A DNA stretch of 64,000 nucleotides from Spirochaetota bacterium (GTDB lineage Bacteria; Spirochaetota; UBA4802; JAFGDQ01), in assembly GCA_034190085.1 (NCBI GenBank), contig JAXHTS010000081.1:2541-66540 (forward strand). Reading direction: 5' to 3'. The position numbers and the translations under genes were made by a program. Positions 1,201-39,519 of this stretch are shown here, piece by piece. The notes under the pieces were generated by a model. That model did not search any database. It saw nothing but the letters and a program-made list of their open reading frames with translations, and was not told the origin of the DNA. How positions within the stretch are numbered: position 1 is the first letter of the stretch; every line of letters begins with the position of its first letter.

Positions 1201-2133
1201 CTACACTAACCTCTCTTCAATATCTTCAGCTATTTTTATAGCTTCCGTTAAATTTGGAATCCCATTCCTGCCTCCGTATTCTCTACAGGAGAGTGAGGCC
1301 ACGGTTACAGAAAGCTTAACCGCCATATCCAAGGTATAATCCCTGTTTATGGCATAAGCCAAAGCTGCATGAAAGTTGTCGCCGGCCCCAATAGTATCCT
1401 TAATCCGAATTTTGATGGCTGGGACATGGTAAAGACTCTTGTTCTTTATATAGTAGGCGCCCTCAATGCCCTTTGTCACTATTATCTCTCCCTTCAACAT
1501 CTCCTTTAGCCTGAATATCTTATCAAAGAATGATTTATTATCAAAGGGTAGCTCTTTTGAGTCAAGGAAGTCTGCGGTTGGGACAAAGTAATCAGCAACC
1601 TCCATGATGTCAGTTATGCCATCCCGCCATCTCTCGCAATCATAGATAATCCTAAACCTATCCTCAGCCAAGGGCCTTAACACCTTGGCAAGATAAGTCA
1701 CCTCCGGATCAAGCAATACTACCCTGGCTTTAGATAGTATTTCCTCGATACTCTTCGTAATCTCTATTATGGGAAGGGTGGAATGATCATAGATTATCGT
1801 TCTCTTGCCATTCGATTTTGTCACAAATACATAAGCGATGGGGGTTCTTCCCTTCTTTACTATCTCAATATATTTTGTATTAACACGAAAGTCCTTCAGG
1901 CGGTTTAAACAGAATCTTCCAACCTCATCATCACCGACCTTCCCAATATAGGCAACTGATCCACCAAGCCTAGAGATGCAGCAGGATGAAGTGCCACCCT
2001 GTCCTCCGGCTTCCTCTAATCTGAATTCAAGGGGAACCTTCTGATCCTCCCTGGGAAATTCATCAACTATCGCAATATAATCAATGCAATTGCGGCCAAA
2101 GACTATAATCTCCGGATAATTCATGAGTCTCAA
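1201..2133 (-). CDS. PfkB-family carbohydrate kinase (ribokinase-like)
   Basis: GG motif near the N-terminus (EAGGQGG) and PfkB signature 2, DTIGAGDNFHAA, near the C-terminus. Overlaps the upstream gene by 4 bp. Confidence 0.8.
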   Translation of the reverse strand: MRLMNYPEIIVFGRNCIDYIAIVDEFPREDQKVPLEFRLEEAGGQGGTSSCCISRLGGSVAYIGKVGDDEVGRFCLNRLKDFRVNTKYIEIVKKGRTPIAYVFVTKSNGKRTIIYDHSTLPIIEITKSIEEILSKARVVLLDPEVTYLAKVLRPLAEDRFRIIYDCERWRDGITDIMEVADYFVPTADFLDSKELPFDNKSFFDKIFRLKEMLKGEIIVTKGIEGAYYIKNKSLYHVPAIKIRIKDTIGAGDNFHAALAYAINRDYTLDMAVKLSVTVASLSCREYGGRNGIPNLTEAIKIAEDIEERLV

Positions 2134-2864
2134 ATTAGCGTAGGAAGGATCTCTGCCAGAGAATCGGACAATTTATAAGCCGCGTATTTATCATAAGGGG
2201 TTGGATCTCGATTGATGATTATTATCGGTCTTTTGTTATGGTAAGCCACCTCAACGAATGAGCATACAGGAAACACCACCAATGAGCTACCAAGCGACAT
2301 AAAGAGATCGCATTCCTTTGATGCCTTCTCCGCAAGGGAAATATGATCAGGATTCAGGTTCTGTCCAAAGGATACGGTATTGGGCTTAATATACCCATTG
2401 CAATCCACACACCTGGGATCATAGTCGAATTCAGCAATCTGATCAAACACATCTTCAATATTGAATATTTTTTTACAGCTCCAGCAGATTGCTTTCATAT
2501 TAGTTCCATGCAGGTTTACTATTCTTTCTTCCGCAACCCCGCCCTTTTCGTGAAGGCCATCAATATTTTGAGTTAAGAGCCAGAATAATCTGCCATCCTT
2601 ATCCAGCTTGCCCAATGCGAAATGAGCCGGATTTGGTTCCGCATTAATCATTGAAGGAATTGTATCGCTCTTGTATCTCCAGTAATACCTCCGCTTTTCA
2701 CTATCGCTTAGGAATTCCTGAAGGGTTACGGTCTTATATTGACTCCATACTCCTCCAGGACTCCTAAAATCAGAAATGCCAGATTCAGTTGAGATGCCTG
2801 CGCCAGTAAGTACAGTGATTTTATTTGAATTGTGAATTAGTCTTTTAATCTCTCTATGATCCAT
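2130..2864 (-). CDS. cobB: NAD-dependent protein deacylase, Sir2/CobB family
   Basis: GAGISTESGISDFRS Rossmann/NAD motif, two zinc-binding Cys pairs (CWSCKK...CVDCNG), and a ~245 aa size typical of bacterial sirtuins. Confidence 0.85.
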   Translation of the reverse strand: MDHREIKRLIHNSNKITVLTGAGISTESGISDFRSPGGVWSQYKTVTLQEFLSDSEKRRYYWRYKSDTIPSMINAEPNPAHFALGKLDKDGRLFWLLTQNIDGLHEKGGVAEERIVNLHGTNMKAICWSCKKIFNIEDVFDQIAEFDYDPRCVDCNGYIKPNTVSFGQNLNPDHISLAEKASKECDLFMSLGSSLVVFPVCSFVEVAYHNKRPIIIINRDPTPYDKYAAYKLSDSLAEILPTLI

Positions 2865-2949
2865 GTCGCTAAAATGCTTGTCGGAATCATTGTATTGATA
2901 TGCTCTGTACTCTATCGGAACAGATCCCTGATGAGAAACAACATTTGAG

Positions 2950-4182
2950 TTATCTTTTTACCCTTTTTAGATTGCGGTTCATCAATCTCTCTACTCCAGC
3001 TTCATTTTCTGCCTCAACCTGCTGTATTTGCTCATCAGAATAGTTCAATATATCCATTAAGACCTCTTTTGTATGCTGTCCCAAATCTGGAGCCGGCTCC
3101 GGATCTCCCTCCAGCTCATTTTCCATCTTGAATACAGGACCAATGGTTTTATATTTTTGCCCCTTGATCTCCATCTCAATTATCATATTATTATGCTCAA
3201 CCTGAGGATCATTGGCAACCTGTTCATAACTCAGAACAGGCCCTGAGGGTATATCGTTTTCATCCCGAAATATATTTACCCACTCATCGGTGTTCTTCTT
3301 TTTCAGGGCATTGGCAAAATGTTCCCTGAATTCCTCCGCATTGAGAATTCTATTCATCATATTATCGAATTTCGGATCCTTAAACATCCAATCAAGACCC
3401 ACCAACTCTACCAACTTATCCTCGCTTCCAGGTCCAATTGTCATATATCCATCCTTTGTGTCATGAACGCCATAGGTTTGCATCATATGATGTCTTCTCC
3501 CCTGAAGCCCTGGGAGATTGCCGCTGGCAAAATAGTTCTGGAAGAGAACCTTTTGCATGAGTATAAGTGAATCCAGAAGATTAACCTCTGCCTTGACACC
3601 CTTCCCATCTTTATCTCTACTTATTAGCGCAGCTAGGATAGATAGCACAGCAAAGATGCCGCCCATCATATCAGCCATTGCTATGCCGCCTGGGATTACT
3701 GGGGGTCTATCGGGTTCCCCAGAGAGGCTTAGAATTCCGCTGTGACCGCAGGCTATTATATCAAAGGAGGGGTACTTGACGTATGGTCCAGTCGGGCCAT
3801 ATCCAGAGATGTTGCATCTTATAATATTGGGATTGATCTCCTTCAGGGTTTCGAAGTCACTCCCCTGCCTCTTAGGAACATCTGCCCGAAAATTAGAAAA
3901 AACCACATCTGATTTTTTTACCAAGTCATAAAATGCCTTCTTCCCCTTTTCGCTTCCAAGGTCTAATACAATGCCCTTCTTATTCCGATTAAGTGTTAAA
4001 ACATAGTAGTTTATCGGATTTACCTCTTTTTCACCATATCTCAATATATCTCCCAGCGGGGATTCAATTTTTATGATCTCTGCTCCAAGATCTCCTAAAA
4101 GCATAGTTCCAAAGGGTCCAGCATGAGCTTGACTCATGTCGAGAATCCTAATGCCGCACAATGGGCCTTTCGTTATTGCCAT
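2950..4182 (-). CDS. CoA-transferase family III protein (CaiB/BaiF/Frc-like)
   Basis: N-terminal GPLxGIRxLDxSxxxAGPxxxxxLxDLGAEVIKxE motif characteristic of family III CoA-transferases; 410 aa. Confidence 0.8.
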   Translation of the reverse strand: MAITKGPLCGIRILDMSQAHAGPFGTMLLGDLGAEIIKIESPLGDILRYGEKEVNPINYYVLTLNRNKKGIVLDLGSEKGKKAFYDLVKKSDVVFSNFRADVPKRQGSDFETLKEINPNIIRCNISGYGPTGPYVKYPSFDIIACGHSGILSLSGEPDRPPVIPGGIAMADMMGGIFAVLSILAALISRDKDGKGVKAEVNLLDSLILMQKVLFQNYFASGNLPGLQGRRHHMMQTYGVHDTKDGYMTIGPGSEDKLVELVGLDWMFKDPKFDNMMNRILNAEEFREHFANALKKKNTDEWVNIFRDENDIPSGPVLSYEQVANDPQVEHNNMIIEMEIKGQKYKTIGPVFKMENELEGDPEPAPDLGQHTKEVLMDILNYSDEQIQQVEAENEAGVERLMNRNLKRVKR

Positions 4183-4289
4183 TTTATTTTATTCCTCCTC
4201 TCTTGTCTTCTGTTTTGCAAAATAACCGTGTAAACTATGATAGTATATTTTCAATCTTTTACTTACTATTGATACTCGTTTTATTATGA

Positions 4290-5582
4290 TTAATTATTTT
4301 GATTTTTTGTCTTCTCCGCCTCTGCAATGTCATCTTCTGTGAGCAGGGTCATGCTCTTTACGCGCTCCTGCGTTCTCTTTAGACCTGATTGAGTCTCAGT
4401 AATTAATTCATCAATTTGATCGCCAGAATATCCTAATACCTCACTCAATACATCTTCAATATCCTGATTCAAATCAGGAGGCGGTTCAGGATTACCCTCA
4501 ATTAGACTCCCGTCTTCATTATATAACCTAAAAAGAGAGCCTACAGTATTGTATTTTTCCCCCTTAAGCGCCATTTCAATAATCATCTTATTATGCTTAA
4601 CCTGGGGATCATTAATCACATCATCTAGATTGAGCACAGGCCCTGAGGCTATATCGTTTTCATCACGCAAGATTTTAAGCCATTCTTCAGTCGTTTTCTC
4701 AAGGAAGGCCTTTTCAATCAATTGATCCAATCCCTTTTTGTTGGCTAATCTCTTTTCAGAGGAATCATAAAGCGGATCGCTCAACACATACTCCAGTCCA
4801 ATGAGCTTAAGCACCCTCTCCAAATCAATTGGAGCTATGGTTATATATCCATCCTTTGTATCATATATCCCATATCCGGCAGCCATCATATGTCTTCTCC
4901 CCTGATGGCCAGGCTCATTCCCTGATAGGAAATAGAGTTGAAACATAACCTGTTGCATAACCAAAAGCCCATCAAGAAGGTTTATTTCCAGTTTCATCCC
5001 CTTGCCATCCCTATTCCTCTTCACAAGGGCGGCTAATACGGACATGCACCCAAAGATACCGCCCATCATATCAGCTAATGCTATACCGCCGGGTATTACC
5101 GGAGCCCTTCCAGGCTCTCCAGATATGCTCAAAATTCCGCTATGCCCGCATGCGATGATGTCAAAGGAGGGATAAGCAATATAGGGTCCCGTCTCACCAT
5201 AACCCGAAATATTAAGACGGATAATACCTGGGTTTATCTTCTTAAGGGTATCAAAATCGCTTCCCTGTCTCTTGGGCACATCAGCTCGATAATTTGAAAA
5301 GACTATATCAGATTTCTTCACTAATTCGTAGAAGGTCTTTCTGCCTATTTCACCCTTTAAATCTAATGATATACTCTTCTTATTGCGATTGAGTCCTATT
5401 ATGTAGGAATGCGAAACATGTACCTTAGGATCTCCCATTCTCATGAATTCACCTGTAGGTGGCTCCACCTTTATTATTTCAGCCCCAAGATCCCCTAAAA
5501 GCAGGGTGCCAAAGGGACCTGCATGAGCCTGAGTCAAATCTAATACTCTGATACCGTTTAACGGCCCTTTTGTGATTGGCAT
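4290..5582 (-). CDS. CoA-transferase family III protein, tandem paralog
   Basis: Same N-terminal signature (MPITKGPLNGIRVLDLTQAHAGPFGTLLLGDLGAEIIKVE) and collinear with its neighbour over the full length. Confidence 0.8.
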   Translation of the reverse strand: MPITKGPLNGIRVLDLTQAHAGPFGTLLLGDLGAEIIKVEPPTGEFMRMGDPKVHVSHSYIIGLNRNKKSISLDLKGEIGRKTFYELVKKSDIVFSNYRADVPKRQGSDFDTLKKINPGIIRLNISGYGETGPYIAYPSFDIIACGHSGILSISGEPGRAPVIPGGIALADMMGGIFGCMSVLAALVKRNRDGKGMKLEINLLDGLLVMQQVMFQLYFLSGNEPGHQGRRHMMAAGYGIYDTKDGYITIAPIDLERVLKLIGLEYVLSDPLYDSSEKRLANKKGLDQLIEKAFLEKTTEEWLKILRDENDIASGPVLNLDDVINDPQVKHNKMIIEMALKGEKYNTVGSLFRLYNEDGSLIEGNPEPPPDLNQDIEDVLSEVLGYSGDQIDELITETQSGLKRTQERVKSMTLLTEDDIAEAEKTKNQNN

Positions 5583-6022
5583 ATATTATACTCCTTTATT
5601 TGTAAAAATCTGGGTTTGTTGCTGCAAAATATCTATATTAGAATATTACTTGACATAATTCGCTATAATAATCTTCAAGAAGTGATGGCATTATGGGAAT
5701 AGCCTTACTGCAGAAACAATAACAACTACCTAATATTATTTGATGATAAAAAACTAAATAATTGAATATTGTCAAGAAAAAAGTCGAGTTATTTTAAAGT
5801 AAACAACCTCAATCATCCTGCGGGTGAAAATCATTTTAAATCTCAACAGAGAAAGTGTTTAGGGTTTTATCGGTTGTATATGCTCATGATAGTTGCATAG
5901 CATTTATCTTTCTTATCTGAAACTCAAAATCGGATTACCCCTTCTCAACTTCATTGATAAGAAAGGGATAAGGACATAATCACACTCTATCAATTTCTAT
6001 AGTTCAATAAATATCCAAACAC

Positions 6023-6982
6023 CTATTTGAATGCATAAATGACCATAGAGCTTGTGATTGATGAGTCCCTGTACCTGATTTTGCTAATATAGTGATAGAA
6101 TGATATTCTAAACCACTTATGATAGTCTGTATATGATTTGAAATAATATCTTGACTTTAAAAGCTTGGGCAACAGACCGAATTCAACTGGATGAAATGTA
6201 ATAATTCTACTAAATCCTTGCCATTTTAAAAGAGAGGTTAGATTTTTTTTTGTAAAATAGGATAAATGAACCGGCATATAATAGGCATATCTATCACCCA
6301 ATACTCTTGCTTGGAGTCCATCCATATTCGCTGTCTGAATAACAAGCAGCCCGCCACCTTTCAGTAGCCTGTAACATTCCCTAATAGCTGTTACTGGATC
6401 TGCAAGATGCTCTATGAGTTCTATCATGGTGATAACTGAAAAGAATTTTTCTTTAAAGGGATTATCATATAGGCTGCCAATATGAATATTATTACCAAAA
6501 AGGCCCTTTGCGTATGTTCCAGCATACTCCGATAGCTCTATACCATAGGGGGAGAAGTATTGTGAGGCTAATTTTAGGAATCCGCCAAAAGCGGAGCCTA
6601 TGTCAAGTAAATTGCCCTTGGCTGCATGCCCTCTTATTATTTCAATCCTCTTTTCCCACACATAGCCGGCATATCTTTCCAACTCCCTCTCATCATAGTA
6701 GGAATAATCCCTTCCACATTTATAATAATCCTCACTATAGAAATCCTCGATTATGCTCTCTTGAAAGGCGGGATTCATAAAGATGAAGCCACATAATCTG
6801 CATCTATCGACCCTAAAAAAAGGATTATATTTATCTATTATGTATTTGAGTTCAATCTCTTTCCCGCCGCAAAGGGGACAATGGTCCTTTAATTGACTGT
6901 ATATCGATGAATCTGAGAAGGTATATTCTTTTTCTACAAAAGGCATCTGATACCTTAATACAAATATATTGAAATTAAGCAA
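6023..6982 (-). CDS. class I SAM-dependent methyltransferase with N-terminal C4 zinc ribbon
   Basis: CPLCGG...CRLCG zinc ribbon, then SAM motif I LLDIGSAFGGF and the acidic motif II/post-I region. The start may be the internal Met (MPFVEKEY). Confidence 0.7.
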   Translation of the reverse strand: MLNFNIFVLRYQMPFVEKEYTFSDSSIYSQLKDHCPLCGGKEIELKYIIDKYNPFFRVDRCRLCGFIFMNPAFQESIIEDFYSEDYYKCGRDYSYYDERELERYAGYVWEKRIEIIRGHAAKGNLLDIGSAFGGFLKLASQYFSPYGIELSEYAGTYAKGLFGNNIHIGSLYDNPFKEKFFSVITMIELIEHLADPVTAIRECYRLLKGGGLLVIQTANMDGLQARVLGDRYAYYMPVHLSYFTKKNLTSLLKWQGFSRIITFHPVEFGLLPKLLKSRYYFKSYTDYHKWFRISFYHYISKIRYRDSSITSSMVIYAFK

Positions 6983-7432
6983 CTAATCAGCTAATGTCAT
7001 TCCAGCGAATGCAGGAGTCTTAAATGTTTTCAAAACCCTTTAAAAAATTGCTTTAGATTCCGGCATTTCGTTACGCTACAGCCGGGATGACATACTTTTA
7101 ATACCCCTAACTCATCCTTTATACATTTTTTGTCTAATAGTGTATATGAAAAAACACATGACTAGTTACAATATTAATAAATTTAATGGAGAATAGGAGA
7201 GCAAGGCCTTAGATTTCCTTTTTATTATCGTTTGAAACCGTAAGTAGTTGTATAATTATTGAAGTGCTTGATTTATTCAGCGATACTTTGTCAATTGAGA
7301 TGAGACTAGCTAAGGGCCGTAGAACCATAAAAAATTGCTTTTATTGGTTATGGAAAGAATAATCATGGACAATTTTTTTGAAGGATTGTTGACCCTTAGG
7401 CAAGGTTAGTGTAGAGGGGGAAGCCTTTCTCA

Positions 7433-8851
7433 ATGACAGTAAATAAGGAGTGTGTCAATACCATGGAGAATATCTCAAATAGTGAAATTAAGAATATGTT
7501 TCAGGGAAGGATATGGCCTGTGACATTAAAACTTACAATACCAATAGCAATAAGCAATCTACTAGCATACCTATACCTGATAACAGACACATTCTTCATC
7601 ACACAGATTGACCCCTCATCAACTGCCCTTCTCAGTGGTCCTGCGCTTGTTTTCCCCTTTTTCTTTTTATTTATGTCATTAGGCATAGGCCTCACAGTGG
7701 GGGTAAGTACCCTTATTGCGAGGGGCATCGGGGAAAATAATAAAAGGATAATTGATAATACTGCGGATACAGGGCTCTTCATCTCTTCAATTATTGCATT
7801 CTTTATAATTACCTTCGGATATTCATTTGCACATGAAATCATCCATCTCCTTGCGGGAACAGAATTAACCGTTGATGCTATACAGTATGGGCTTGATTAT
7901 TATTATTATCTGCTTCCGGGTCTTGGGATGATGCTCTTCGCATATGTATTTTTTGGCCTTCTCCAGGGGGAAGGATTAACCAAGAATATTGCCATAGCCT
8001 CAATTATTGCGTTTGTGTCAAATATGATACTCGATCCCCTTCTTATTTTTGGATTTAAAATGGAGGTGGCTGGCGCTGCACTAGCCTCTACAATCTCCTA
8101 TGCCATTGCCGGGGTATATGTGATTCAGCTTTTCATTACAAAAAAATCATGCGTTCCTATTCATTGGAATCTATTTAAAACTAGAAAAACAATTATATAC
8201 CATATTATTCGTATTGGATTTCCTGAATCCCTCAGCATGCTCTCTATGTCCATCACATTTATCTTTCTGAATAATATAGTAAGCTCAATTGATGAAGTGG
8301 CTATGAACTCCTGGTCTCTTTGCAGCAGAACTGATCAAATATTGCTTATCCCGGCGATAGCTGTATCTTCTTCCACTATCACAATGATCGGACAGAATTA
8401 TGGAAGAAAGAATATAAGGAGATTGATCAATATTTATAAATTTAATGTTATGTTTGCCTTATCTATTGTATTATTCCTGGCCTTTGTCTACAATTTAGCT
8501 GCTCGTCCATTATTCGGTTTTTTTACAACGGTTCAGGAGGTAATTGAGGGGGCTGTTTTACAGATAAGATATATTTCATTTACCTATATCGGCATCTCCA
8601 CTATCGCTATATCCGGAGCCACCTTTCAAGCCACAGGAAGGCCCCTGCCGGCCCTCTTAATACGATTGATCCAAATAGGACTAATTACAATACCCCTGGC
8701 ATTCTTATCAGTAAAATTTTTGCAGATGGGAATGGTTGGCATCTTCATAAGCATCGCCACAGGGCATATGCTTTTATTGATTATATCGTGGTTTTGGACA
8801 GATCTACATTTAAAAAATTTAGAACACAGAACTTTGGATTATTTGGATTAA
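7433..8851 (+). CDS. MATE family efflux transporter
   Basis: About 12 predicted TM segments, MATE-like N-terminus (LTIPIAISNLLAYLYLITDTFFI) and the internal-duplication pattern. The true start is possibly ATG 7463, which has an AAGGAG upstream. Confidence 0.8.
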   Translation: MTVNKECVNTMENISNSEIKNMFQGRIWPVTLKLTIPIAISNLLAYLYLITDTFFITQIDPSSTALLSGPALVFPFFFLFMSLGIGLTVGVSTLIARGIGENNKRIIDNTADTGLFISSIIAFFIITFGYSFAHEIIHLLAGTELTVDAIQYGLDYYYYLLPGLGMMLFAYVFFGLLQGEGLTKNIAIASIIAFVSNMILDPLLIFGFKMEVAGAALASTISYAIAGVYVIQLFITKKSCVPIHWNLFKTRKTIIYHIIRIGFPESLSMLSMSITFIFLNNIVSSIDEVAMNSWSLCSRTDQILLIPAIAVSSSTITMIGQNYGRKNIRRLINIYKFNVMFALSIVLFLAFVYNLAARPLFGFFTTVQEVIEGAVLQIRYISFTYIGISTIAISGATFQATGRPLPALLIRLIQIGLITIPLAFLSVKFLQMGMVGIFISIATGHMLLLIISWFWTDLHLKNLEHRTLDYLD

Positions 8852-8897
8852 GGGGATGGGGGATAGAACTGGGCAGCATGAATAATTTTTTTTAATA

Positions 8898-9164
8898 TTA
8901 AGTCTTTATTCTCAGATTGAATGCCCTTCTATTTGTGCTCCTCCTGTTTGAATTTCTTCTATCAAGTTTGTCTTTATTATCTGTCTCATATCTATTTTTA
9001 TGAACTCTCCGCTCTGATCTTCTCCTCTCTGAAATTCTTCTGTCAAAAACCCCGCCATTGAATTTGGAATATCGAAGCAGAATTAAAAAAATTATTATTA
9101 TTACAACTTCAATTGTTATAAACACAAAAAAATCCATATTATAGAAAAATAGATTATTATCCAT
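8898..9164 (-). CDS. small membrane protein with an Arg/Ser-rich basic cytoplasmic tail
   Basis: One TM helix, then RRISERRRSERR...DRRNSNRRSTNRR. No recognisable family. Confidence 0.35.
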   Translation of the reverse strand: MDNNLFFYNMDFFVFITIEVVIIIIFLILLRYSKFNGGVFDRRISERRRSERRVHKNRYETDNKDKLDRRNSNRRSTNRRAFNLRIKT

Positions 9165-9300: not shown

Positions 9301-10218
9301 CTAGGATACGGAGTGTATGATTTTCCCAGATTCACTGAAATCGTAATTGCCAAGGGGCTTAACGATTTTTCTGAATTCCTCTGTTTTAAGGGTGTCAATG
9401 AATGCCTGTAGGCCCTTTAGGAAAAATGTTTCTTGCGAAAGAACCATATCAAAGCTTTCCCGTACTAAAGGAACAAAGGGCAGGCCGAATAGATTTGATA
9501 TAGCTACAGTCGCAATGCCAATATTTGCCTCGCCTGACAACACAGCGAGTCCCACTTCAAAGTGTGTATGTACCACACGCTCATAGCCATTTATCAGATG
9601 GGGATCAATATCCGTCCGCTGCAAATGATAATCGAGCAGCACTCGGGTGCCTGATCCCTCCTGTCGATTGACAAACTCCACGCCCTTAGCTGTGAGATCA
9701 CTAAATTCGGTTACATTTAATTTTGCCTGTGGAGAGAGGATAAAACCGAGTTCTCTATAGAAAAGATGCACCACTGCGACCTTCATATCCTGAATATAAT
9801 CTGCTAAATATGGAATGTTGTAATCGCCGGTTTTGGGATCTAGCAGGTGACACCAGGCAACGTCAATTTTCCTTTCGCCCAGCATACATAGACCCTTGGT
9901 GCTTCCAATACTACAGGTGAATATGTAAAAACCAGGATGAGACTGTTTCATATAGCTCAAAAGAATATCAAGGATCGGATCATTGCTACCGGCAGACATT
10001 ATGTATCCCTCAGGGGTTTTAGTCTTTCCCTCTGTGCCTGTTGTCCCATGTTGGGCATGTGATGTGATCCATTCATCGATAATGTGCTTTGGAAATATCC
10101 ATTTGCCTGTAATGCGTGTGCAGGGGATTCTGCCGGACTTTATTAGCGAATAAACCTGTTTCTCGTGAATTCCGAGATACTCCGCCACTTCCTTTGTGTT
10201 CATCATATCCTTGGGCAT
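9301..10218 (-). CDS. transcriptional regulator: excisionase/MerR-type HTH (HTH_17) fused to a periplasmic-binding-protein-like oxyanion-binding domain (TunR/ModE-like architecture)
   Basis: N-terminus MNTKEVAEYLGIHEKQVYSLIKSGRIPCTRITGKWIFPKHIIDEW is a typical HTH_17. The C-terminal ~230 aa have PBP-like alpha/beta character, as in the PBP_like (pfam12727) molybdate/tungstate-responsive regulators. Divergently oriented to the cytochrome gene. Confidence 0.7.
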   Translation of the reverse strand: MPKDMMNTKEVAEYLGIHEKQVYSLIKSGRIPCTRITGKWIFPKHIIDEWITSHAQHGTTGTEGKTKTPEGYIMSAGSNDPILDILLSYMKQSHPGFYIFTCSIGSTKGLCMLGERKIDVAWCHLLDPKTGDYNIPYLADYIQDMKVAVVHLFYRELGFILSPQAKLNVTEFSDLTAKGVEFVNRQEGSGTRVLLDYHLQRTDIDPHLINGYERVVHTHFEVGLAVLSGEANIGIATVAISNLFGLPFVPLVRESFDMVLSQETFFLKGLQAFIDTLKTEEFRKIVKPLGNYDFSESGKIIHSVS

Positions 10219-10399
10219 GGATTCCCCTCCATCATTTTCTATAAGGGATATGGATAATTTTCAATAACTAATTTGATAAATTACATAAATTTCGCATACC
10301 TATTTGTAGTTTATACCCAGTCATATAGAACAATCGTCCGCTTTAATCGCCCTTTTTGCGTGAAATACTACAATATATAGTTAATTATTACATTTTATT

Positions 10400-10425
10400 A
10401 CAATAAATTACTTTTATTGTTGACA
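10400..10425 (+). promoter_or_regulatory. candidate operator palindrome (ACAATAAA-N5-TTTATTGT) overlapping a TTGACA -35-like hexamer upstream of the cytochrome gene
   Basis: Seen directly: acaataaattacttttattgt at 10400-10420 is followed by ttgaca at 10420-10425. The -10 is weak, and the RBS AGGAGGA sits 8 nt before the ATG at 10482. Confidence 0.25.
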
Positions 10426-10481
10426 TGCTAGTAACCGCTTTTTTCATGGAAAAAACTATTAAAGATTAGGAGGAATCCGTT

Positions 10482-11696
10482 ATGCTAAATAAATTAAATA
10501 ATCCTATGGTCATCCTTTACATTGTTCTGATCGCCTTCTGCGCATGTTCAGATGATAGCAGCTCTAATAGCTTTGTCCCAACGGAAATTGTCTCATCACG
10601 GGCATATTCAGGCCATGAAAGTGATGTGGATGCTAACAATTTTGTGAAAACATATCCCTCCACAGTTGGCAAACGACTCGATGATTGCCAGACATGCCAT
10701 TCCGGGGGAAGGATTACCTATGCGGATAGCGGAAAGACAAAGAATATCGATAATCCCTGTTCTTATTGCCATCTAAAGGCATTTGAAGAGGGGAGTGACT
10801 TCACATCCGGGTACCCTTCAACCTATGAGTCTACCCTTAATCCCTATGGCCTTGCTTATAATAATGCGGGCAGAAATCAGGAAGCACTGCAAGCTATCGC
10901 TGATCAGGATTCTGATAGTGATACATATTCAAATGCGGAAGAGATTGAGGACTTGCGTTTTCCCGGGGATGCCGACAGTTATCCTGGTCAGCCCCTTGCT
11001 CCCACAATAGAGCTTTACTGGGATGATGTTACCGCAATGAATAAACATGAACAGTTTATGCTGCTTAACGCTCATAAACAGCAATATGATGATTATGTAA
11101 CCTACAAAGGGGTAACAATCCTGGATCTAATCGCTGCGGCGGGCATTGATTTATCAGGCGCTACTGGCATGACCTTCTTTGCTCCTGATGGTTATCAGAA
11201 GGATTTTGATCTGGATGAGGATATCAATTACAGTTATCCCAGGGGCATATATTATTCAGTCCCCAGTTGGCCCGATGATCCTGAGAGGAATCTCATCAAT
11301 TATCCTGATATAATCCCGGATGGGCTAGCCCATGGCAGCGAGATCCCTGATGAGTTATATATGATTCTTGCTTATGAACGCGATGATGGCTATCTGGATG
11401 AATCCTACTACGATAGCACAGACGGGAGAATAGGCGGAGAGGGCCCCTATCGAATTGTGCGTCCCCAGGAATCGGCCGGAAGACCGGATCGTGGCTCAAG
11501 AGCCAATACATATGGCGATGGATGGGACTATGACGATAACATTGATCATAATGCAGGCGATGCTGTTAAGGGCACTTGTGTAATTCGCATTGATCCTATG
11601 CCCGATGGGTATGAGGAATATGATTGGATAAACGGATGGTCCTTGATTATGGATAAAAAACTTATTGTTTATGGCCAAGGGGTAACGGAAAAATAG
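10482..11696 (+). CDS. diheme c-type cytochrome lipoprotein with a C-terminal domain resembling the sulfite-oxidase-family (Oxidored_molyb / YedY-MsrP-like) fold
   Basis: Signal peptide plus Cys (LIAFCACS). Two CxxCH heme motifs (CQTCH, CSYCH) about 25 aa apart. Downstream are the pattern YKGVTILDLIAAAGIDLSGATGMTFFAPDGYQ ... ELYMILAYERDDGYL...GGEGPYRIVRPQ ... KGTCVIRIDP, which parallels the WxGVxLxDLL...F.A.DGY / LAY.mNGe.L...GgPxRLvvP blocks of Moco-domain proteins. The usual Mo-ligating Cys upstream of the WxGV block is absent. Confidence 0.6.
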   Translation: MLNKLNNPMVILYIVLIAFCACSDDSSSNSFVPTEIVSSRAYSGHESDVDANNFVKTYPSTVGKRLDDCQTCHSGGRITYADSGKTKNIDNPCSYCHLKAFEEGSDFTSGYPSTYESTLNPYGLAYNNAGRNQEALQAIADQDSDSDTYSNAEEIEDLRFPGDADSYPGQPLAPTIELYWDDVTAMNKHEQFMLLNAHKQQYDDYVTYKGVTILDLIAAAGIDLSGATGMTFFAPDGYQKDFDLDEDINYSYPRGIYYSVPSWPDDPERNLINYPDIIPDGLAHGSEIPDELYMILAYERDDGYLDESYYDSTDGRIGGEGPYRIVRPQESAGRPDRGSRANTYGDGWDYDDNIDHNAGDAVKGTCVIRIDPMPDGYEEYDWINGWSLIMDKKLIVYGQGVTEK

Positions 11697-11735
11697 ATAG
11701 AGCGACGCCATGTATCGTAAGAATATAGTTAAAAT

Positions 11736-12971
11736 ATGGCTTTGAGAAGTTTATTGATTCTATTGGTGTTATTTTTTTGCTATCCCCTAAAGGCGCAGAA
11801 TAACCCTGCGTCTATTTATATCAATGGAGGAATCAATAATCCCGAAATCCCTGATAAGATTAAGGATGATCCTCTTTATACCTTTAATGTGCATATTGGA
11901 GGTTATCTTCAGTTATGGTATATCTATGAAGGGGTGGAGAATGGGAAGCGGCAGCGTTTAACAAATGATGAGGCTGCACAGCAGGCATCGGGGTTCAGCT
12001 TTAATAGGGCAAGGGTATATATTGAGAATATTGATGGCAAACTTAGGGGCAAGATATCAGCAAAGCTTGAAAGCGGCACCCCATCAATGCTGGATGCCTA
12101 TGTACATTATTTATTGATAAAGGATAATCTTCAACTCCGGGCCGGGCAGATGAAGATACCATCAACCTATGAGGTTGAAACCAGCAGCTCAAATCTTGAA
12201 TTTGCTACACGAAGCCGCTTTACCGACAATGTGGCCAACTGGTCATTATCAAAGAGCACATCGAGCATCTCCCCCTTTACCAGCGTCCAAACCTATTATA
12301 GGGATTTGGGTGTGGCTATTAGGGGAAATCTTTACGGATTCACATATCACTGTATGATATCAAATGGGCTTGGGGCAAATCTTTTTGTAGGGGGCAATGA
12401 GAGCAGGCAATTTGTATACACTAACACCTTTGGAGCATATTTTTTCGGGACGAGGCTATCATGGGATATTATGAGGCTTTTTCATCTGGTAGATTTCCCA
12501 GTATCATCATTTCGCCTTGGGGGGCATAGAAATCGGAACAGACACCCGAATATACTCTATAATGACACAAAGACGGTTCTTGATATAGATCGGGAATCCT
12601 GGTCCTCTGACATACAGATAATCATCTTTAATCGAATCAGACTCACTGGCATGTATGGGAAAGGGGTTGTTGAGGATGACTTTGACAACAATAATGAGCC
12701 GGATTATAGGTATCACGGCTATGAACTCAGGGTTATTGTTGAGATACTGAAGGATCGTCTTGAAGCTGGATTTAGATTCGATTCCTACACTGATGAAAAC
12801 TCTATCTTTGGCGGGGAAGAGACTATGAAGACCTATACCCTTGGGATTAACTACTATATCCCTCCTGGTCTAAGGATGCAGCCCAATTATAAATGGAAAA
12901 GGCTTGAGGGTGAACTCAATATTGAGACCAATGATGATATCTTCATCCTTTCAGCGCAATATGAATTTTGA
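11736..12971 (+). CDS. outer-membrane beta-barrel porin-like protein
   Basis: Signal peptide (cleavage after LKA), alternating amphipathic beta-strand pattern, C-terminal ...ILSAQYEF with a terminal Phe typical of OMPs; 411 aa. Lies 40 bp downstream of the cytochrome gene. Confidence 0.55.
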   Translation: MALRSLLILLVLFFCYPLKAQNNPASIYINGGINNPEIPDKIKDDPLYTFNVHIGGYLQLWYIYEGVENGKRQRLTNDEAAQQASGFSFNRARVYIENIDGKLRGKISAKLESGTPSMLDAYVHYLLIKDNLQLRAGQMKIPSTYEVETSSSNLEFATRSRFTDNVANWSLSKSTSSISPFTSVQTYYRDLGVAIRGNLYGFTYHCMISNGLGANLFVGGNESRQFVYTNTFGAYFFGTRLSWDIMRLFHLVDFPVSSFRLGGHRNRNRHPNILYNDTKTVLDIDRESWSSDIQIIIFNRIRLTGMYGKGVVEDDFDNNNEPDYRYHGYELRVIVEILKDRLEAGFRFDSYTDENSIFGGEETMKTYTLGINYYIPPGLRMQPNYKWKRLEGELNIETNDDIFILSAQYEF

Positions 12972-12983: not shown

Positions 12984-13673
12984 TTATCTTTTCATTGAGG
13001 CAAGTCCATTATTAAGAGTTTTTCTCTTCTCCTTGAGCCTCTTTATATGATCATCAATAATCCTGCGATAATTTAATTCTCCCTTAATAATGGAATACCT
13101 CTCTGACTCAATGAATCCCAGGTCTGTTGTTATCCTGATGTTGCTGGCCTTCTCCGCATATCCTTTGGCTTTATTCCAATAGCCTATAGCCTTCCTGTAC
13201 AGCCCTTCAGCAATGTCAAGGCTCTCCCTGATCTCCTTAGCAAAATCGAGGTTGTAGAAATAGATTCGTCTTTTGTCATATCTTGACGCTATTCTTAGAT
13301 AATTTCTCATTATGAGAATGTTTATATGCATAAACATGAGCCTTCGGTATTTGAGATATTCATCCTTTGTCTCAATCTTAATTAGAGCCTCTGAAGGATG
13401 CCTAAATCTGCATTCTAGGGCCCTCTTCAATCTTTCAATATTCTTTCTTAGCGAGTTTTCATTATAATACTGTTTCTTTCCATAAAGCTGGTAATAATCC
13501 TCCAGGTAGTGCGGCACAGTTTTATAGTGGAGCCTAACCTTTGGTATATAGTCAGAAAATGGTGTGTATTCCTTCTTTTCTTTGAAATACTGATACTGAT
13601 AATCCTCTGCATCTAATTGCGGGGCACACAGATGCACAATAAGAATGATCTGTAGAACAAGGCATTTTTTCAT
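12984..13673 (-). CDS. secreted basic Tyr-rich hypothetical protein
   Basis: N-terminal signal peptide (MKKCLVLQIILIVHLCAP); no recognisable domain. Confidence 0.45.
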   Translation of the reverse strand: MKKCLVLQIILIVHLCAPQLDAEDYQYQYFKEKKEYTPFSDYIPKVRLHYKTVPHYLEDYYQLYGKKQYYNENSLRKNIERLKRALECRFRHPSEALIKIETKDEYLKYRRLMFMHINILIMRNYLRIASRYDKRRIYFYNLDFAKEIRESLDIAEGLYRKAIGYWNKAKGYAEKASNIRITTDLGFIESERYSIIKGELNYRRIIDDHIKRLKEKRKTLNNGLASMKR

Positions 13674-20222: not shown

Positions 20223-21974
20223 ATGAGAAAGACTAAGATAGTATGCACTCTTGGCCCTGCAACGGAGAGGAATAATATCTTAAGACAACTCTTCATCAAT
20301 GGCATGAACGTCGCAAGATTGAATTTTTCTCATGGCACGCATGACGAGCACAGAAAGACTGTTGAAAAATTTATGGCCCTTAGGGATGAATTGGATATTC
20401 CAGTTGGCTTGCTTATGGATACAAAGGGTCCGGAGATTAGAGTTCAACAGTTTGAAAAGGATCGCATAGAACTCAAGGCTGGGAGTATATTTACATTGAC
20501 CACAGATGATGTTGTCGGGAATGAAAAAATAGTCTCAGTCACCTACAAAGGATTAACAAATGATGTGGATAGGGGCGATATAATTTTAATTGATGACGGT
20601 TTGATTAAATTGAAGGTTGTAAGTAGAAATAAAATAGAAATTCAATGCGAGGTTATTAACGGAGGCCCTGTAAGCAATAATAAAGGTATAAACGTGCCTA
20701 ATGTGTCGATCAATATGCCCTATATTAACGAAAGGGATAGAAAGGATTTCCAATTTGTAACAGAAAATAATTTTGATTTTATTGCTGCCTCCTTTGTGAA
20801 AAATGCCAGTTGCATAAAGGAATTAAGAAGGACTCTGGAGGATTATGGAGGGGGGAATCTAAAAATAATTGCAAAAATTGAGAACAGGGAAGGGGTAGAT
20901 AATGCAGATGATATTATTAGAATTAGCGATGGAGTGATGATTGCAAGGGGGGATATGGGGGTTGAGATCCCCTTTGAGGAATTACCGTCAATACAAAAGG
21001 AATTGATAAGCAAATGTTACCTCGCTGGAAAGCCAGTTATTACTGCTACGCAAATGCTTGATTCCATGATACATAACCCAAGACCAACAAGGGCTGAGAT
21101 AACTGATGTGGCAAATGCAATCTATGATGGCACAAGCGCAATAATGCTTTCAGGCGAAACGTCTATAGGGAAATATCCCTTGGAAGCATTGTTGACCATG
21201 TCTAAGATAGCTATTCATGCCGAAAAGAACATCGATTATATATCTAGATTTAACAACACTCATTTTGCAGTTTCAAGAAATGTGACCAATGCTATTAGTC
21301 ATGCCACATGTGTTACTGCTCATACCCTTGACGCTTCAGCAATAATTTCTGTAACCAAATCAGGACATACTGCTCAGATGATATCGAAATTTAGGCCAGC
21401 ATCTCCAATAATTGCTACAACCGTTAATCGAAATGTCTATTGGCAGTTATCATTATCATGGGGGGTTCGTCCCGTGCTAACTGAGATTAAGGATTCCACA
21501 GATGATATCTTTGATCAGGCTATTGAAAAGGCCTCAAATTCAGACATAATAAAGAATGGAGATTTAGTCGTAATTACTGGCGGAACGCCTGCCGGTATAA
21601 GTGGAACAACGAACACCCTGAAGGTTCATATAATCGGGGATGTCCTGGTAGAGGGGAAGGGATTAAATAATCTCTCTGTAACCGGAAATTTATACGTTGT
21701 CCACAAAAAGGATGATGCTATGAAAGATTTTAACGCGGGGGATATCGTAGTTATTTCAAAAACAACGGATGAGATACTATTGGCCTTAAAATATGCTTCC
21801 GGGGTTATTACTGAGGAGGATGAAGAGGACTCAAGGGCGGCAGTCGTTGGAATGGCATTAGAGATACCCGTGATAGCAAATGCAGTTGAAGCGACAACGG
21901 TTTTGAAGAGTGGGACTGTAGTCTCACTCGATGCCTTATCGGGGGTTGTGTATAGCGGACTTAAGAGGAATTGA
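20223..21974 (+). CDS. pyk: pyruvate kinase with C-terminal PEP-utilising (mobile) domain
   Basis: MRKTKIVCTLGPATE N-terminus, K+/Mg-binding blocks, MIARGDMGVEIP, and an extra ~110 aa C-terminal domain as in Geobacillus-type PK. Confidence 0.9.
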   Translation: MRKTKIVCTLGPATERNNILRQLFINGMNVARLNFSHGTHDEHRKTVEKFMALRDELDIPVGLLMDTKGPEIRVQQFEKDRIELKAGSIFTLTTDDVVGNEKIVSVTYKGLTNDVDRGDIILIDDGLIKLKVVSRNKIEIQCEVINGGPVSNNKGINVPNVSINMPYINERDRKDFQFVTENNFDFIAASFVKNASCIKELRRTLEDYGGGNLKIIAKIENREGVDNADDIIRISDGVMIARGDMGVEIPFEELPSIQKELISKCYLAGKPVITATQMLDSMIHNPRPTRAEITDVANAIYDGTSAIMLSGETSIGKYPLEALLTMSKIAIHAEKNIDYISRFNNTHFAVSRNVTNAISHATCVTAHTLDASAIISVTKSGHTAQMISKFRPASPIIATTVNRNVYWQLSLSWGVRPVLTEIKDSTDDIFDQAIEKASNSDIIKNGDLVVITGGTPAGISGTTNTLKVHIIGDVLVEGKGLNNLSVTGNLYVVHKKDDAMKDFNAGDIVVISKTTDEILLALKYASGVITEEDEEDSRAAVVGMALEIPVIANAVEATTVLKSGTVVSLDALSGVVYSGLKRN

Positions 21975-22094
21975 AATTTTGGATTATAATGTGAAATGCT
22001 TCTTCTGTTCCATAGAAAATAAAATTTAGAGATTATTTTAAAATATGAAATTTGAGAGACCCGGCAATATAGAGGAGTGAAAAGATATTACCTC

Positions 22095-23321
22095 ATGAAT
22101 AGATTCAGCGGGATAAAGATTCTGGTGATCAACTGTGGGAGTTCTACAGTAAAATTTCAATTAATTGACATGTCCAATGAAAATGTGCTGGCTAAGGGGG
22201 TTGTTGATAGGATTGGTCAGACTGATTCAAAAATGAAATACAGGCTTATGGATAATGATTATGCTAAAGAGTGCGATACTCATGATCATGGCTCTGCCAT
22301 TTCAAGAATTATTGATGAGATAACAAATAGCGAATTTGGTGTGATAGGGGACAGAAGTGAGATCTCAGCCGTTGGTCATAGGGTAGTGCATGGGGCGGAA
22401 AAATTCGCTAAATCTGTTCTAATAGATGATGATACGATTGATCAGATTGAAGCATGCATTGAGCTTGCCCCTCTTCATAATCCTCATAATCTGAATGGGA
22501 TACTTGTGTGCAAAGATCTATTGCCGAATGTAGCTCAGGTGGCTGTGTTTGATACTGCTTTTCATCAAACAATGGAGGATCATGTCTTTATGTATGGGTT
22601 GGCATACAGGTTTTATGAAGAGCATAGGTTCAGGCGTTATGGGTTTCATGGAACCAGCCATTTCTATGTTTCCAAGAGGGCTTCAGAGATTGTTGGAATT
22701 GACATACAGAAGCTGAGGATAATTACATGTCATCTTGGGAATGGGGCCAGCGTAACGGCAGTGAAATTTGGAAGGTCGGTTGATACATCCATGGGATTTA
22801 CTCCCCTTGAGGGTCTCATGATGGGCACAAGGTGCGGGGATGTTGATCCCTCCATGGCTTTGTTTGTTATGGAGAAGGACAACTTGACATCAGCGGAATG
22901 CGATGCGTTGATGAACAAGGAGTGCGGATTGATCGGGGTATCTGGCATTAGTTCGGATATGCGTGATCTGATCAACGCTTATAATGATGGCAATAGCAGG
23001 GCTAGGCTTGCTCTAGAGATGTATGCATATCGCATTAAAAAATATATTGGGATGTATGCTGCTGTAATGAATGGGGTCGATATAATTGTCTTTACCGGAG
23101 GGATAGGTGAAAATGCGTCGCTTATAAGAGGCATGTGCTGTAGTGAGATGGAATATCTAGGCGTGGAATTGGATGAGGGGAGGAATATAAGAATAATCGG
23201 AGCTGAAGGGGAATTGAATACACAGAATTCAAGGGTTAAGGTGTTGTGTGTGCCGACAAATGAAGAGCTGGTCATAGCCAGGGATACAGCTCGGATAGTC
23301 AGCAATGAGAATGGTCGTTAG
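22095..23321 (+). CDS. ackA: acetate kinase
   Basis: KILVINCGSSTVKFQL N-terminus and acetate/propionate kinase signature blocks. The start was moved to ATG 22095 so that the N-terminus aligns with AckA; the track start 22077 is a GTG that abuts the RBS. Confidence 0.9.
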   Translation: MNRFSGIKILVINCGSSTVKFQLIDMSNENVLAKGVVDRIGQTDSKMKYRLMDNDYAKECDTHDHGSAISRIIDEITNSEFGVIGDRSEISAVGHRVVHGAEKFAKSVLIDDDTIDQIEACIELAPLHNPHNLNGILVCKDLLPNVAQVAVFDTAFHQTMEDHVFMYGLAYRFYEEHRFRRYGFHGTSHFYVSKRASEIVGIDIQKLRIITCHLGNGASVTAVKFGRSVDTSMGFTPLEGLMMGTRCGDVDPSMALFVMEKDNLTSAECDALMNKECGLIGVSGISSDMRDLINAYNDGNSRARLALEMYAYRIKKYIGMYAAVMNGVDIIVFTGGIGENASLIRGMCCSEMEYLGVELDEGRNIRIIGAEGELNTQNSRVKVLCVPTNEELVIARDTARIVSNENGR

Positions 23322-23458
23322 GCTTATTGTATTCAAAGTAACTAATAGATATTTCTAACATTGCCTTAGCTTGCCCAAAATTAATATTATATTATGGATG
23401 AGAAGCGGATTTATGCTTCTCCCATGTAAACAAAAGTCTTTGGCGGGGTTTATCAAAC

Positions 23459-33803: not shown

Positions 33804-35303
33804 ATGGAGACAATTCATTCTGCGACTCCACTATTCGCGCAACTAACTTCTCTGATTGGTGCATTCCTGGTTTTGTTTACAGGTGAGAAGAGACCTAATC
33901 TCCGTGAAACTTGGACTATTATAGCTTCTGTAGTTAAATTTGTGCTTTTGTTTTCAATAATATCTCATGTCATCGATGGTAACATTATTGAATTCACGCT
34001 AGTGGAGGTCTGTAAAGGGGTATCCCTTCAGTTTAGGATAGATGCTTTTGGGGCTATATTTGCTTTGCTCGCTTCCTTTCTATGGATTGTGGTTTCGATT
34101 TACTCTATTGGATACATGCGGGGATTGAAGGAGCATGCTCAAACTCGTTTTTATTTTTGTTTTGCTCTTGCAATTTTTAGCGCAACTGGCATAGCTATGG
34201 CAGGAAATCTATTAACCCTTTATATGTTTTATGAGATATTGACTGTCGCCACATTCTTGCTTGTAGCTCATAAGGAGACACCGGACGCGATCAAGTCTGG
34301 TAGAAAGTACCTTACTTACTTATTGTCAGGTGCGGCTTTAGTTCTTTTTTCCATGGGAATGACCTACCATCTTACAGGAACTCTAGATTTTATTCCAGGT
34401 GGATTTATTGGTGGGCATGGGTCTAATGCCCTTTTGAGTCTGGTCTTTGTATTGTTTATCATTGGATTTGGCACCAAGGCTGCCATAATGCCTTTTCATG
34501 AATGGCTTCCTTCGGCAATGGTGGCGCCTACCCCTGTAAGCGCATTGCTTCACGCTGTTGCAGTTGTAAAGGCTGGGGTTTTCTGCTGTCTTAGAATAAT
34601 CCTTTATGTTTATGGGCCGGATTTGCTGACAGACTTAGGACTATGGACAATATTAGCTATCTTTGTTTCTATTACTGTGATTGTTGCCAACTTCTTTGCT
34701 TTAACACAGGATCATTTGAAAAGGAGGTTGGCTTTTTCAACAATCAATAATCTTTCTTTAATTATTTTAGGCGCTGCTTTGATCTCTTCTGATGGGATCA
34801 AAGGGGCAATGCTTCATATCCCATTTCATGGATTTATGAAAATTACACTATTTATGTGTGCCGGAGCGATTCTTGTTAAAACACATAAAGAGAATATCAG
34901 TGAAATTGATGGCATAGGGAGGCAGATGCCCATAACAATGGCCGCTTTTACTATCGGCGCGGCAGGTCTGACAGGGCTGCCGCCTGTATGTGGATTGATT
35001 AGCAAGTGGTATCTATGCCTTGGGGCTTTGCAAGCCAATGCGATAATATTTTTATGTGTATTCCTCTTGAGTGCGATACTGGACGCGGCTTACTTCTTTC
35101 CTATAGTGTACAGTGCCTTTTTTAAGAAAGCTGCAAATGATATTAAATCGCATTTTGATGAGGCGCCTATATTTGCTGTGACTGCTATTGTGATTACAGC
35201 GGTTTTCTCGGTGCTTCTATTCCTGTTCCCTGATTTGATATTCAATTTTTACTCAATAGTTGGATTGGCAGTTGAATCCATAGTTTCTGGAGGAGGATTG
35301 TGA
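33804..35303 (+). CDS. Mrp/NuoN-family antiporter-like large subunit (MrpD-like, paralog 1)
   Basis: 499 aa, ~14 TM helices, conserved HAxxKAxxF/charged-Lys TM blocks of the NuoL/M/N-MrpA/D family. Confidence 0.8.
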   Translation: METIHSATPLFAQLTSLIGAFLVLFTGEKRPNLRETWTIIASVVKFVLLFSIISHVIDGNIIEFTLVEVCKGVSLQFRIDAFGAIFALLASFLWIVVSIYSIGYMRGLKEHAQTRFYFCFALAIFSATGIAMAGNLLTLYMFYEILTVATFLLVAHKETPDAIKSGRKYLTYLLSGAALVLFSMGMTYHLTGTLDFIPGGFIGGHGSNALLSLVFVLFIIGFGTKAAIMPFHEWLPSAMVAPTPVSALLHAVAVVKAGVFCCLRIILYVYGPDLLTDLGLWTILAIFVSITVIVANFFALTQDHLKRRLAFSTINNLSLIILGAALISSDGIKGAMLHIPFHGFMKITLFMCAGAILVKTHKENISEIDGIGRQMPITMAAFTIGAAGLTGLPPVCGLISKWYLCLGALQANAIIFLCVFLLSAILDAAYFFPIVYSAFFKKAANDIKSHFDEAPIFAVTAIVITAVFSVLLFLFPDLIFNFYSIVGLAVESIVSGGGL

Positions 35304-37259: not shown

Positions 37260-37436
37260 GTGAAGTCGTTATGGTGTTCGGAGGTCATGATGGAAGGATT
37301 ATATTATTATTACTACAATGAAATGTTTTGCTTGACCTTTCCCAATTGTTTAAATAGAGCTGCAAAAGAAGTAATAGTGTTTATATAGGTCTATGGGCTT
37401 GTATAGCGTTAAGATTTTATAAGATAAGGAAGTAAG

Positions 37437-39055: not shown

Positions 39056-39056
39056 A

Positions 39057-39515: not shown

Positions 39516-39519
39516 GATT

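Follow-up and report, generated by a model that had tools for sequence, protein, structure and literature searches.

The window analysed here, a 64-kb stretch of a Spirochaetota metagenome-assembled genome (MAG), includes a locus in which a gene for a transcriptional regulator is divergent from a two-gene cassette for a diheme c-type cytochrome lipoprotein of the GEGP family and an outer-membrane porin. It is plausible, if somewhat short of probable, that this cassette is an extracytoplasmic accessory module of tungstate and molybdate acquisition under oxyanion control. The link to tungsten and molybdenum (W/Mo) is drawn with moderate confidence from neighbouring genes in other bacteria. W/Mo handling is proposed because genes for a TupABC-like transporter, for synthesis of the molybdenum cofactor (Moco) and for aldehyde:ferredoxin oxidoreductase (AOR) occur beside GEGP genes, a Mop gene lies beside a homologue of the regulator gene, and the sensor domain of the regulator is of a MoeA-associated type. 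All three proteins belong to catalogued families, the name of the GEGP family being based on its motifs only. New here are the sulfite oxidase (SUOX) fold of the C-terminal half of the GEGP protein, its partnership with a porin subfamily, a receptor as an alternative partner, surface-anchored variants, and the W/Mo context. An earlier note on this DNA had described the three genes, their divergent layout and the lipoprotein correctly, and the open reading frames (ORFs) lie where it had placed them.

The first gene of the pair (10482..11696, plus strand) encodes a GEGP motif-containing diheme c-type cytochrome lipoprotein of 404 amino acids (aa). The protein includes exactly two CxxCH motifs, CQTCH at residues 69–73 (nucleotides (nt) 10686-10700) and CSYCH at residues 93–97 (nt 10758-10772), so that the two heme c attachment motifs occupy positions 10686..10772 of the plus strand. 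A DSDxD acidic loop is found at approximately residues 143–147, and the GEGP motif at residues 319–322 lies inside the C-terminal SUOX-fold half. The protein is a full-length member of the NCBIfam family NF041762 ('GEGP motif-containing diheme protein'), having both CxxCH motifs and the GEGP motif and scoring 449.3 bits against a cut-off of 300 over model positions 1–358 of 359, and a protein identical to it carries the NF041762 name in the NCBI annotation. An 81-kb contig in NCBI encodes this protein together with one identical to the regulator. The family is defined by motifs, without a function, a partner or a mode of regulation, and no paper on it was found in a full-text search. No Pfam family was found for the cytochrome, and PF00174 gave no match at E values up to 0.1. 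The N-terminus, MLNKLNNPMVILY.., is a Sec/lipoprotein signal peptide that ends between ..LIAFCAC and SDD, with Cys20 and Cys22 as lipobox candidates, and it lacks a twin-arginine motif.

An alignment with 35 GEGP homologues from across phyla, which are approximately 50% identical, revealed that C69, C72, H73, C93, C96 and H97 of the two CxxCH motifs are invariant. His45, His356 (in a DHNAG motif), the DSDxD loop, GEGPxRxxxPQ and RPDR are also invariant, and the only invariant cysteines are the four of the CxxCH motifs. An exhaustive profile search found 1548 representatives of the family at E <= 0.001, the named sources of which include Spirochaetota, Acidobacteriota/Aminicenantes, Desulfobacteraceae and a Syntrophomonas MAG. 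As the homologues of the three proteins number from hundreds to thousands and the motifs are invariant in them, the features of these proteins are not due to chance.

The predicted fold of the C-terminal half of the cytochrome (approximate boundaries 10989..11681, plus strand) is that of the Moco domain of SUOX (sulfite oxidase/YedY/PruR-like), and the top 32 Foldseek matches agree with this assignment. The extra enzyme-like domain that the earlier note had suspected is thus borne out at the level of the predicted fold, but not by the PF00174 model, which the protein does not match. The domain has no Mo-ligand cysteine. Attachment of heme c implies export by the Sec pathway. The domain is therefore expected to hold no Moco, since the Mo-ligand Cys is missing, there is no twin-arginine motif, and c-type cytochromes need Sec. 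A true Moco enzyme was rejected on the same grounds, namely the missing Cys ligand, the unmatched PF00174 and the Sec signal. By comparison with SorAB/SoxCD and YedY/MsrP, the GEGP protein is without the conserved Cys, a PF00174 match or a Tat signal, and it differs from these SUOX-fold systems in that a single lipoprotein chain comprises both the heme and the SUOX part. Structures of PruR are among the best matches of the SUOX-like domain in both fold and sequence, with a sequence match of the GEGP family profile to PruR 7kom at E 0.0026. PruR binds pterins in the periplasm, and a Trp replaces its Mo-ligand Cys (PMC11194511). The two proteins have this fold and the missing Cys in common, though in the GEGP protein the domain is not standalone but one part of a diheme protein of 404 aa.

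The second gene (11736..12971, plus strand) encodes an outer-membrane porin of 411 aa, which has a Sec signal (..PLKA followed by QNN) at the N-terminus and a C-terminal Phe. It matches PF07396 Porin_O_P with 42.5 bits against a cut-off of 20.9, and many members of its subfamily match PF07396 too. The AlphaFold2 (AF2) model of the porin, with a predicted local distance difference test (pLDDT) score of 89 and a predicted template-modelling (pTM) score of 0.83, includes 16 β-strands and a long internal helix-bearing loop at approximately residues 141–188, where it corresponds to the usual constriction loop. Only classical trimeric porins were retrieved with this model by Foldseek, the best being OprP (2o4v, template-modelling (TM) score 0.65) and OprO (TM 0.62), and the matches also include Omp32, OmpT and OmpF. 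On this model, the barrel belongs with the ordinary diffusion porins of 16 strands in the phosphate/anion-porin family. It shares Porin_O_P membership, 16 strands and the internal loop with OprP and OprO of Pseudomonas. However, it is only about 14% identical to OprP and belongs to a separate subfamily of 62 proteins, all that a database search yielded, that is tied to the GEGP gene. OprP and OprO are phosphate/pyrophosphate-selective porins, and the substrate proposed for the window porin differs from theirs. An arginine ladder and a lysine cluster confer anion/phosphate specificity in this family, the ladder being what makes OprP specific for phosphate. The regulon of OprP responds to limitation of a nutrient that is an oxyanion, and the same logic is proposed for the window locus. 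In the window porin, four arginines (R93, R189, R286 and R347) never vary and K140 and R240 are almost invariant, but acidic residues are conserved in similar number.

The porin gene starts 39 nt after the stop codon of the cytochrome gene. Co-transcription of the two is likely, as the gap includes no terminator-like site. In every readable locus of the porin subfamily, comprising the window and ten others, the porin gene is directly downstream of a GEGP gene, and a porin without its cytochrome partner was not met in the subfamily loci inspected. Six of the ten loci were reached via the GEGP gene (L001, L007, L008, L029, L032 and L091) and four via the porin (L010, L011, L092 and L093). A single-sequence scan of a genome collection gave one locus (L001), and the other contexts came from contig look-ups and one metagenome scan. 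Moreover, eight further pairs of porin and GEGP matches are on contigs of identical size within each pair. In a database entry of 676 aa (P0179), one ORF reads through from a GEGP gene across out-of-frame filler into the partner porin; an artefact of assembly or a frameshift is the probable cause, though the entry documents the adjacency of the two genes.

Clustering at 60% identity places the porin-linked GEGP proteins in 8 of 13 clusters. A lipoprotein Cys ([GAS]-C or V-C, read by eye) is found at the end of the signal peptide in nine of the 11 porin-linked rows, that of the window included; in the other two (L001 and L093) the recovered N-termini look cut short. A stricter script pattern flagged 7 of the 11. 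No neighbour other than the pair itself recurs in the flanks of L007, L008, L010, L011, L029, L091, L092 and L093. Given the conserved adjacency and flanks that otherwise share nothing, the pair behaves as a self-contained cassette, and chance adjacency of the cytochrome and porin genes was rejected because the pair is conserved.

Among GEGP loci found through the GEGP gene and having enough downstream flank, the porin is present in only 6 of 53, leaving approximately 90% without it. The genes that accompany other GEGP genes are for transporters, not for sulfur oxidation as with SorAB/SoxCD or for cyclic di-GMP (c-di-GMP) signalling as with PruR. Genes for a TupA-like binding protein, a TupB-like permease and an ATPase are found in 22 of the 44 GEGP loci with enough upstream flank. 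The sole NCBIfam match of the TupA-like proteins is TupA NF041772, at 194–213 bits. Where the flank of these Tup-linked loci reaches far enough, moeA, moaC, MOSC and moaA genes are next on the same strand. The TupA-like gene is directly divergent from the GEGP gene in a dozen loci. The Tup-linked loci span two sequence clusters and two arrangements, and in a third sequence cluster (L021) a binding-protein gene is upstream of the GEGP gene on the same strand. Those of the Acidobacteriota/Aminicenantes type share a wider synteny that includes Dus, M28 peptidase and PdxJ genes. In the Aminicenantes-type loci, a gene for a conserved 275-aa protein lies between the Dus and GEGP genes (L005 5998-6825, minus strand, with equivalents in L023, L037, L042, L048, L055 and others), and the protein has neither a Pfam nor an NCBIfam match.

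In four of the 35 remaining GEGP loci (L033, L050, L067 and L087), the GEGP gene is adjoined in the same direction by a gene for a TonB-dependent receptor of one subfamily (40–53% identity over the full length). Related receptor fragments are in the same position in L022, L057 and L062, and L009 has a TonB-dependent receptor that is unrelated to this subfamily. An AOR gene is adjacent to the GEGP gene in L071 and is about 3 kb away in L034 and L082. Genes of sulfur, arsenic, selenium or phosphorus metabolism were not seen to recur beside GEGP genes.

In long variants of the GEGP protein, additional domains follow the complete GEGP module at the C-terminus. In the set P0358, P0360, P0309, P0337 and P0334, these are three SLH domains (P0358, in the Syntrophomonas MAG), three CWB2 domains plus one that is Ig-like, FlgD_ig with a sub-threshold match to a type IX secretion system (T9SS) sorting domain, seven EPTP repeats, or a CarboxypepD_reg domain. 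Both CxxCH motifs are present in all of the SLH, CWB2 and FlgD_ig variants; GEGP is kept in the SLH and CWB2 variants and in P0340, and is GSGP in P0309. The existence of anchored and secreted variants indicates that the site of action of the GEGP module is outside the cytoplasm, and probably at the cell surface in some organisms. Three further proteins (P0321, P0373 and P0386) match only positions ~105–160 of the GEGP profile, the DSDxD region, 7 to 12 times in tandem. Together with weak matches to TSP3_bac and Temptin_C, this suggests that the DSDxD segment is a repeatable TSP3-like module that is probably calcium-binding.

The regulator gene (9301..10218, minus strand) encodes a protein of 305 aa that combines two domains recognised by Pfam. 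The N-terminal part is an excisionase/MerR-like helix-turn-helix (HTH) domain (PF12728 HTH_17, residues 5–54, E 1.6e-14), and the C-terminal part is a solute-binding PBP_like domain (PF12727, residues 89–278, E 1.1e-57), which confirms the periplasmic-binding-protein-like sensor predicted earlier. The C-terminal PBP part of PRK14498, an NCBIfam model of a MoeA fusion, aligns with this sensor domain at 200 bits. Weak, sub-threshold similarity to phosphonate-binding proteins was also seen in Pfam. The family is large, with more than 2173 homologues in the database, and the order HTH_17 then PBP_like was found in 120 of 120 among the matches listed. A search of solved structures with the regulator gave no significant relative.

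TunR had been named as a precedent for this architecture, which is probably wrong. TunR of Desulfovibrio (Kazakov et al. 2013) reportedly joins a DNA-binding domain of the XerC/XerD type to a Mop domain like that of ModE, and neither an integrase nor a TOBE match was found for the regulator in Pfam or NCBIfam. Its proposed role is like that of ModE, TunR and TaoR, each an oxyanion-sensing factor beside W/Mo genes, but the regulator is without the Mop/TOBE domain. TaoR is cited as tungstate-responsive in PMC12327845, and full-text literature searches on TunR, TaoR and PF12727 surfaced nothing relevant. In the proposed scheme, the window regulator would bind tungstate or molybdate and control W/Mo genes. 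We know of no HTH_17–PBP_like regulator that has been characterised experimentally, and hence its ligand can only be inferred.

The divergent intergenic region (10219..10481) is 263 bp long and AT-rich, and presumably includes both promoters and an operator. A candidate perfect 8-bp inverted repeat, ACAATAAA-N5-TTTATTGT (10400-10420), overlaps a candidate TTGACA hexamer (10420-10425), and a candidate AGGAGG ribosome-binding site (10468-10473) precedes the cytochrome gene. A scan of this region for promoter and terminator consensus sequences gave no result above the shuffled expectation. On the other side of the regulator gene, an 88-aa ORF (8898-9164, minus strand) is found just 3' of it on the same strand and may be co-transcribed with it. 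This ORF encodes a single hydrophobic helix, after which comes a repetitive tail rich in Arg (RRISERRRSERR...RRNSNRRSTNRR), and a match to DUF4834 is only weak and sub-threshold.

The closest homologue of the regulator with a readable context (69% identity; L094 and L095) is also encoded divergently from GEGP-derived sequence. By tblastn, the identity is 70% over residues 44–124 and 43% over residues 125–196. The sequence is a frameshifted and truncated remnant of the heme domain only (L094 5446-5900 and L095 183-580), in which no gene was called; the two contigs are from separate samples, and two DUF169 genes come after the remnant. No conserved operator could be aligned between the intergenic regions of the window and of L094/L095.

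A 62%-identical homologue in a Spirochaetes contig (L096) is encoded just downstream of a TOBE/Mop gene. The cluster there (1955-9124) further includes a divergent gene for a 587-aa secreted protein with one CxxCH, a faint PF00174 match and a TP_methylase domain, as well as genes for a TonB-dependent receptor, a 358-aa paralogue of the 587-aa protein (26% identity) and cytochrome c assembly. It looks like a parallel system of heme/SUOX-like proteins and an outer-membrane transporter under the same type of regulator. Membership of these SUOX-like proteins in the GEGP family was considered and rejected, as hhalign gave E 0.002 at 14% probability for one and E 0.17 for the other.

If the cassette serves W/Mo acquisition, GEGP proteins would be located outside the cytoplasm beside an outer-membrane entry route, either this porin or a dedicated TonB-dependent receptor, and the cell-wall-anchored or secreted variants would act at the cell surface. 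They would feed a TupABC-type importer and, beyond it, synthesis of Moco or the tungsten cofactor (Wco) and tungstoenzymes such as AOR. Speculatively, the SUOX-like pocket may bind an oxyanion or a related species, and the two hemes may alter the redox or ligand state of the bound species, for example by turning thio- or reduced W/Mo into the oxyanion for TupA. The porin might carry the solute across the outer membrane, while the PBP_like domain of the regulator might sense the cytoplasmic oxyanion and set transcription from the shared intergenic region.

A more far-reaching form of this proposal is that the GEGP diheme proteins are an unrecognised first step of W/Mo acquisition, which we consider doubtful. 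In full, they would be extracytoplasmic or cell-surface heme enzymes with a Moco-free SUOX fold that convert environmental W/Mo in thio-, reduced or complexed form into the oxyanion and so feed the porin or receptor and TupABC, and the HTH_17–PBP_like regulator would be the tungstate/molybdate sensor. Thio-, reduced or complexed forms of W/Mo are typical of anoxic sulfidic habitats.

Several observations weigh against a role in W/Mo acquisition. The window includes no tup, mod or Moco gene, as judged by tblastn of the whole window with the Tup and Moco proteins of L005, and Pfam revealed no W/Mo gene in 27 of the 52 window ORFs of at least 120 aa, being all those from 1 to 37919. There is likewise no W/Mo gene in the other ten porin-linked loci. 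The metal/oxyanion link made in the earlier note is therefore supported by the gene context elsewhere, but not by the window or the other porin-linked loci. The scores of the TupA-like proteins are under the NCBIfam equivalog cut-off of 400 bits, and, because many of the Tup-linked loci are from syntenic Acidobacteriota/Aminicenantes-like relatives, they amount to a few independent observations and not 22. The regulator is absent from the other ten porin-linked loci, and no convincing operator emerged from the repeats, the consensus scan or the alignment of the intergenic region with those of L094/L095. In L094 the GEGP gene has decayed to a remnant, which shows that it can be dispensed with in that genome at least. 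The family and modelled fold of the porin suggest selectivity for anions, and the conserved charges in the porin are about evenly basic and acidic.

A serious rival is a role with a different oxyanion or a redox shuttle. The GEGP protein would then be an extracytoplasmic redox enzyme for another small anion or shuttle, such as sulfite, thiosulfate, polysulfide, arsenite, selenite, phosphite or a pterin/flavin-type shuttle, with the porin moving this substrate and the regulator sensing the same compound. We regard it as unlikely, though well worth weighing. The SUOX fold surrounds an oxyanion pocket, and the Cys-less PruR binds free pterins in the periplasm (PMC11194511). Porin_O_P is named for phosphate selectivity, the regulator is weakly like phosphonate-binding proteins, surface-anchored variants suit an extracellular substrate or shuttle, and the porin-linked loci are without W/Mo genes. 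However, the recurrent neighbours of GEGP genes are those for the TupABC-like transporter, Moco synthesis, AOR and TonB-dependent receptors, and a close homologue of the regulator gene adjoins a Mop/TOBE gene.

It is rather improbable that the regulator is unrelated to the cassette, its divergent position being accidental and its targets being, for example, its own gene, the small ORF 3' of it or a tup operon far away. This would account for its absence from all ten of the other porin-linked loci, for a very large family that is found in many contexts, and for the failure to find an operator. Against it, the 69%-identical homologue is also divergent from GEGP-derived sequence, and the 62%-identical homologue clusters with a heme/SUOX-like secreted protein, a TonB-dependent receptor and a Mop gene.

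A role as a periplasmic sensor like PruR, in which the SUOX-fold domain would bind a pterin-like signal and the hemes would report the redox state to a partner, so that the function is signalling and not uptake, is very unlikely. PruR, which is among the best matches, is Sec-exported, lacks the Mo-ligand Cys and is maybe lipidated, but it has a Pro-Trp motif at the former Cys position and is encoded in an operon with a DcpA-type GGDEF-EAL protein (PMC11194511). In the GEGP protein, the Pro-Trp motif is absent at the aligned position, where Gln is found instead of Trp. The GEGP proteins are also three times larger and have two hemes, and the inspected loci include no GGDEF/EAL neighbour, DcpA-type or other, and no recurrent signalling gene, the recurrent partners being transporters.

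The porin-cytochrome electron conduit put forward in the earlier note, in which the diheme protein would sit inside the barrel and pass electrons across the outer membrane as in MtrAB, PioAB and Geobacter Pcc, is barely credible and, by heme count and barrel size, largely refuted: the window pair and these systems do share the order of a periplasmic c-type cytochrome gene immediately 5' of an outer-membrane barrel gene, which is conserved, the heme region has very weak, sub-threshold similarity to the MtrC/OmcA models and some GEGP members are surface-displayed, but the protein and its homologues have two hemes only, the high-confidence model is a 16-strand barrel constricted by an inward loop, with no MtrB-type sheath among the top Foldseek matches, no surface cytochrome partner and no other CxxCH-containing ORF were found in the whole window, most GEGP members are without a barrel partner (porin in 6 of 53 loci), and others pair with a plugged TonB-dependent receptor that is unable to house a cytochrome. 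Known conduits have 8–10 or more hemes and barrel sheaths of 20–26 strands, and two hemes are too few to cross the outer membrane.

The remainder of the window provides the setting of the cassette. A 229-aa secreted protein, unmatched in Pfam and NCBIfam, is encoded convergently with the porin (12984-13673, minus strand). The stop codons are only 12 nt apart, and the two transcripts must therefore end within each other's 3' regions. Genes for pyruvate kinase, acetate kinase and phosphotransacetylase are found in a row, and there is a cluster resembling an Mrp-type cation/proton antiporter that includes two Proton_antipo_M genes and MNHE (20223-25561 and 33804-41411). These genes point to a fermentative organism. 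The scan of 27 ORFs (1-37919) revealed no respiratory genes, and, as the window also has no other CxxCH ORF, the lone c-type cytochrome gene stands out. A MatE efflux gene is less than 2 kb from the GEGP gene both in the window (7433-8851, plus strand) and in an unrelated Candidatus Vecturithrix locus (L002 9120-10502), which is probably a coincidence.

In syntrophic and fermentative anaerobes, a central place is taken by tungsten enzymes, among them AOR and formate dehydrogenases. To our knowledge, the passage of tungstate and molybdate across the outer membrane is poorly understood, as is any need for processing of W/Mo before uptake by TupABC or ModABC. The locus could be likened to an oxyanion-uptake regulon with an OprP-like porin, to which a heme component, possibly a new step in W/Mo acquisition, has been added. 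If the W/Mo link is wrong, the locus is still a conserved pair of a heme lipoprotein and a porin, and it is no new electron conduit. If the link is true, the SUOX fold would have been reused without Moco, as a second example after PruR and here fused to hemes, and the GEGP family would be a dedicated and widespread envelope component of the W/Mo pathway.

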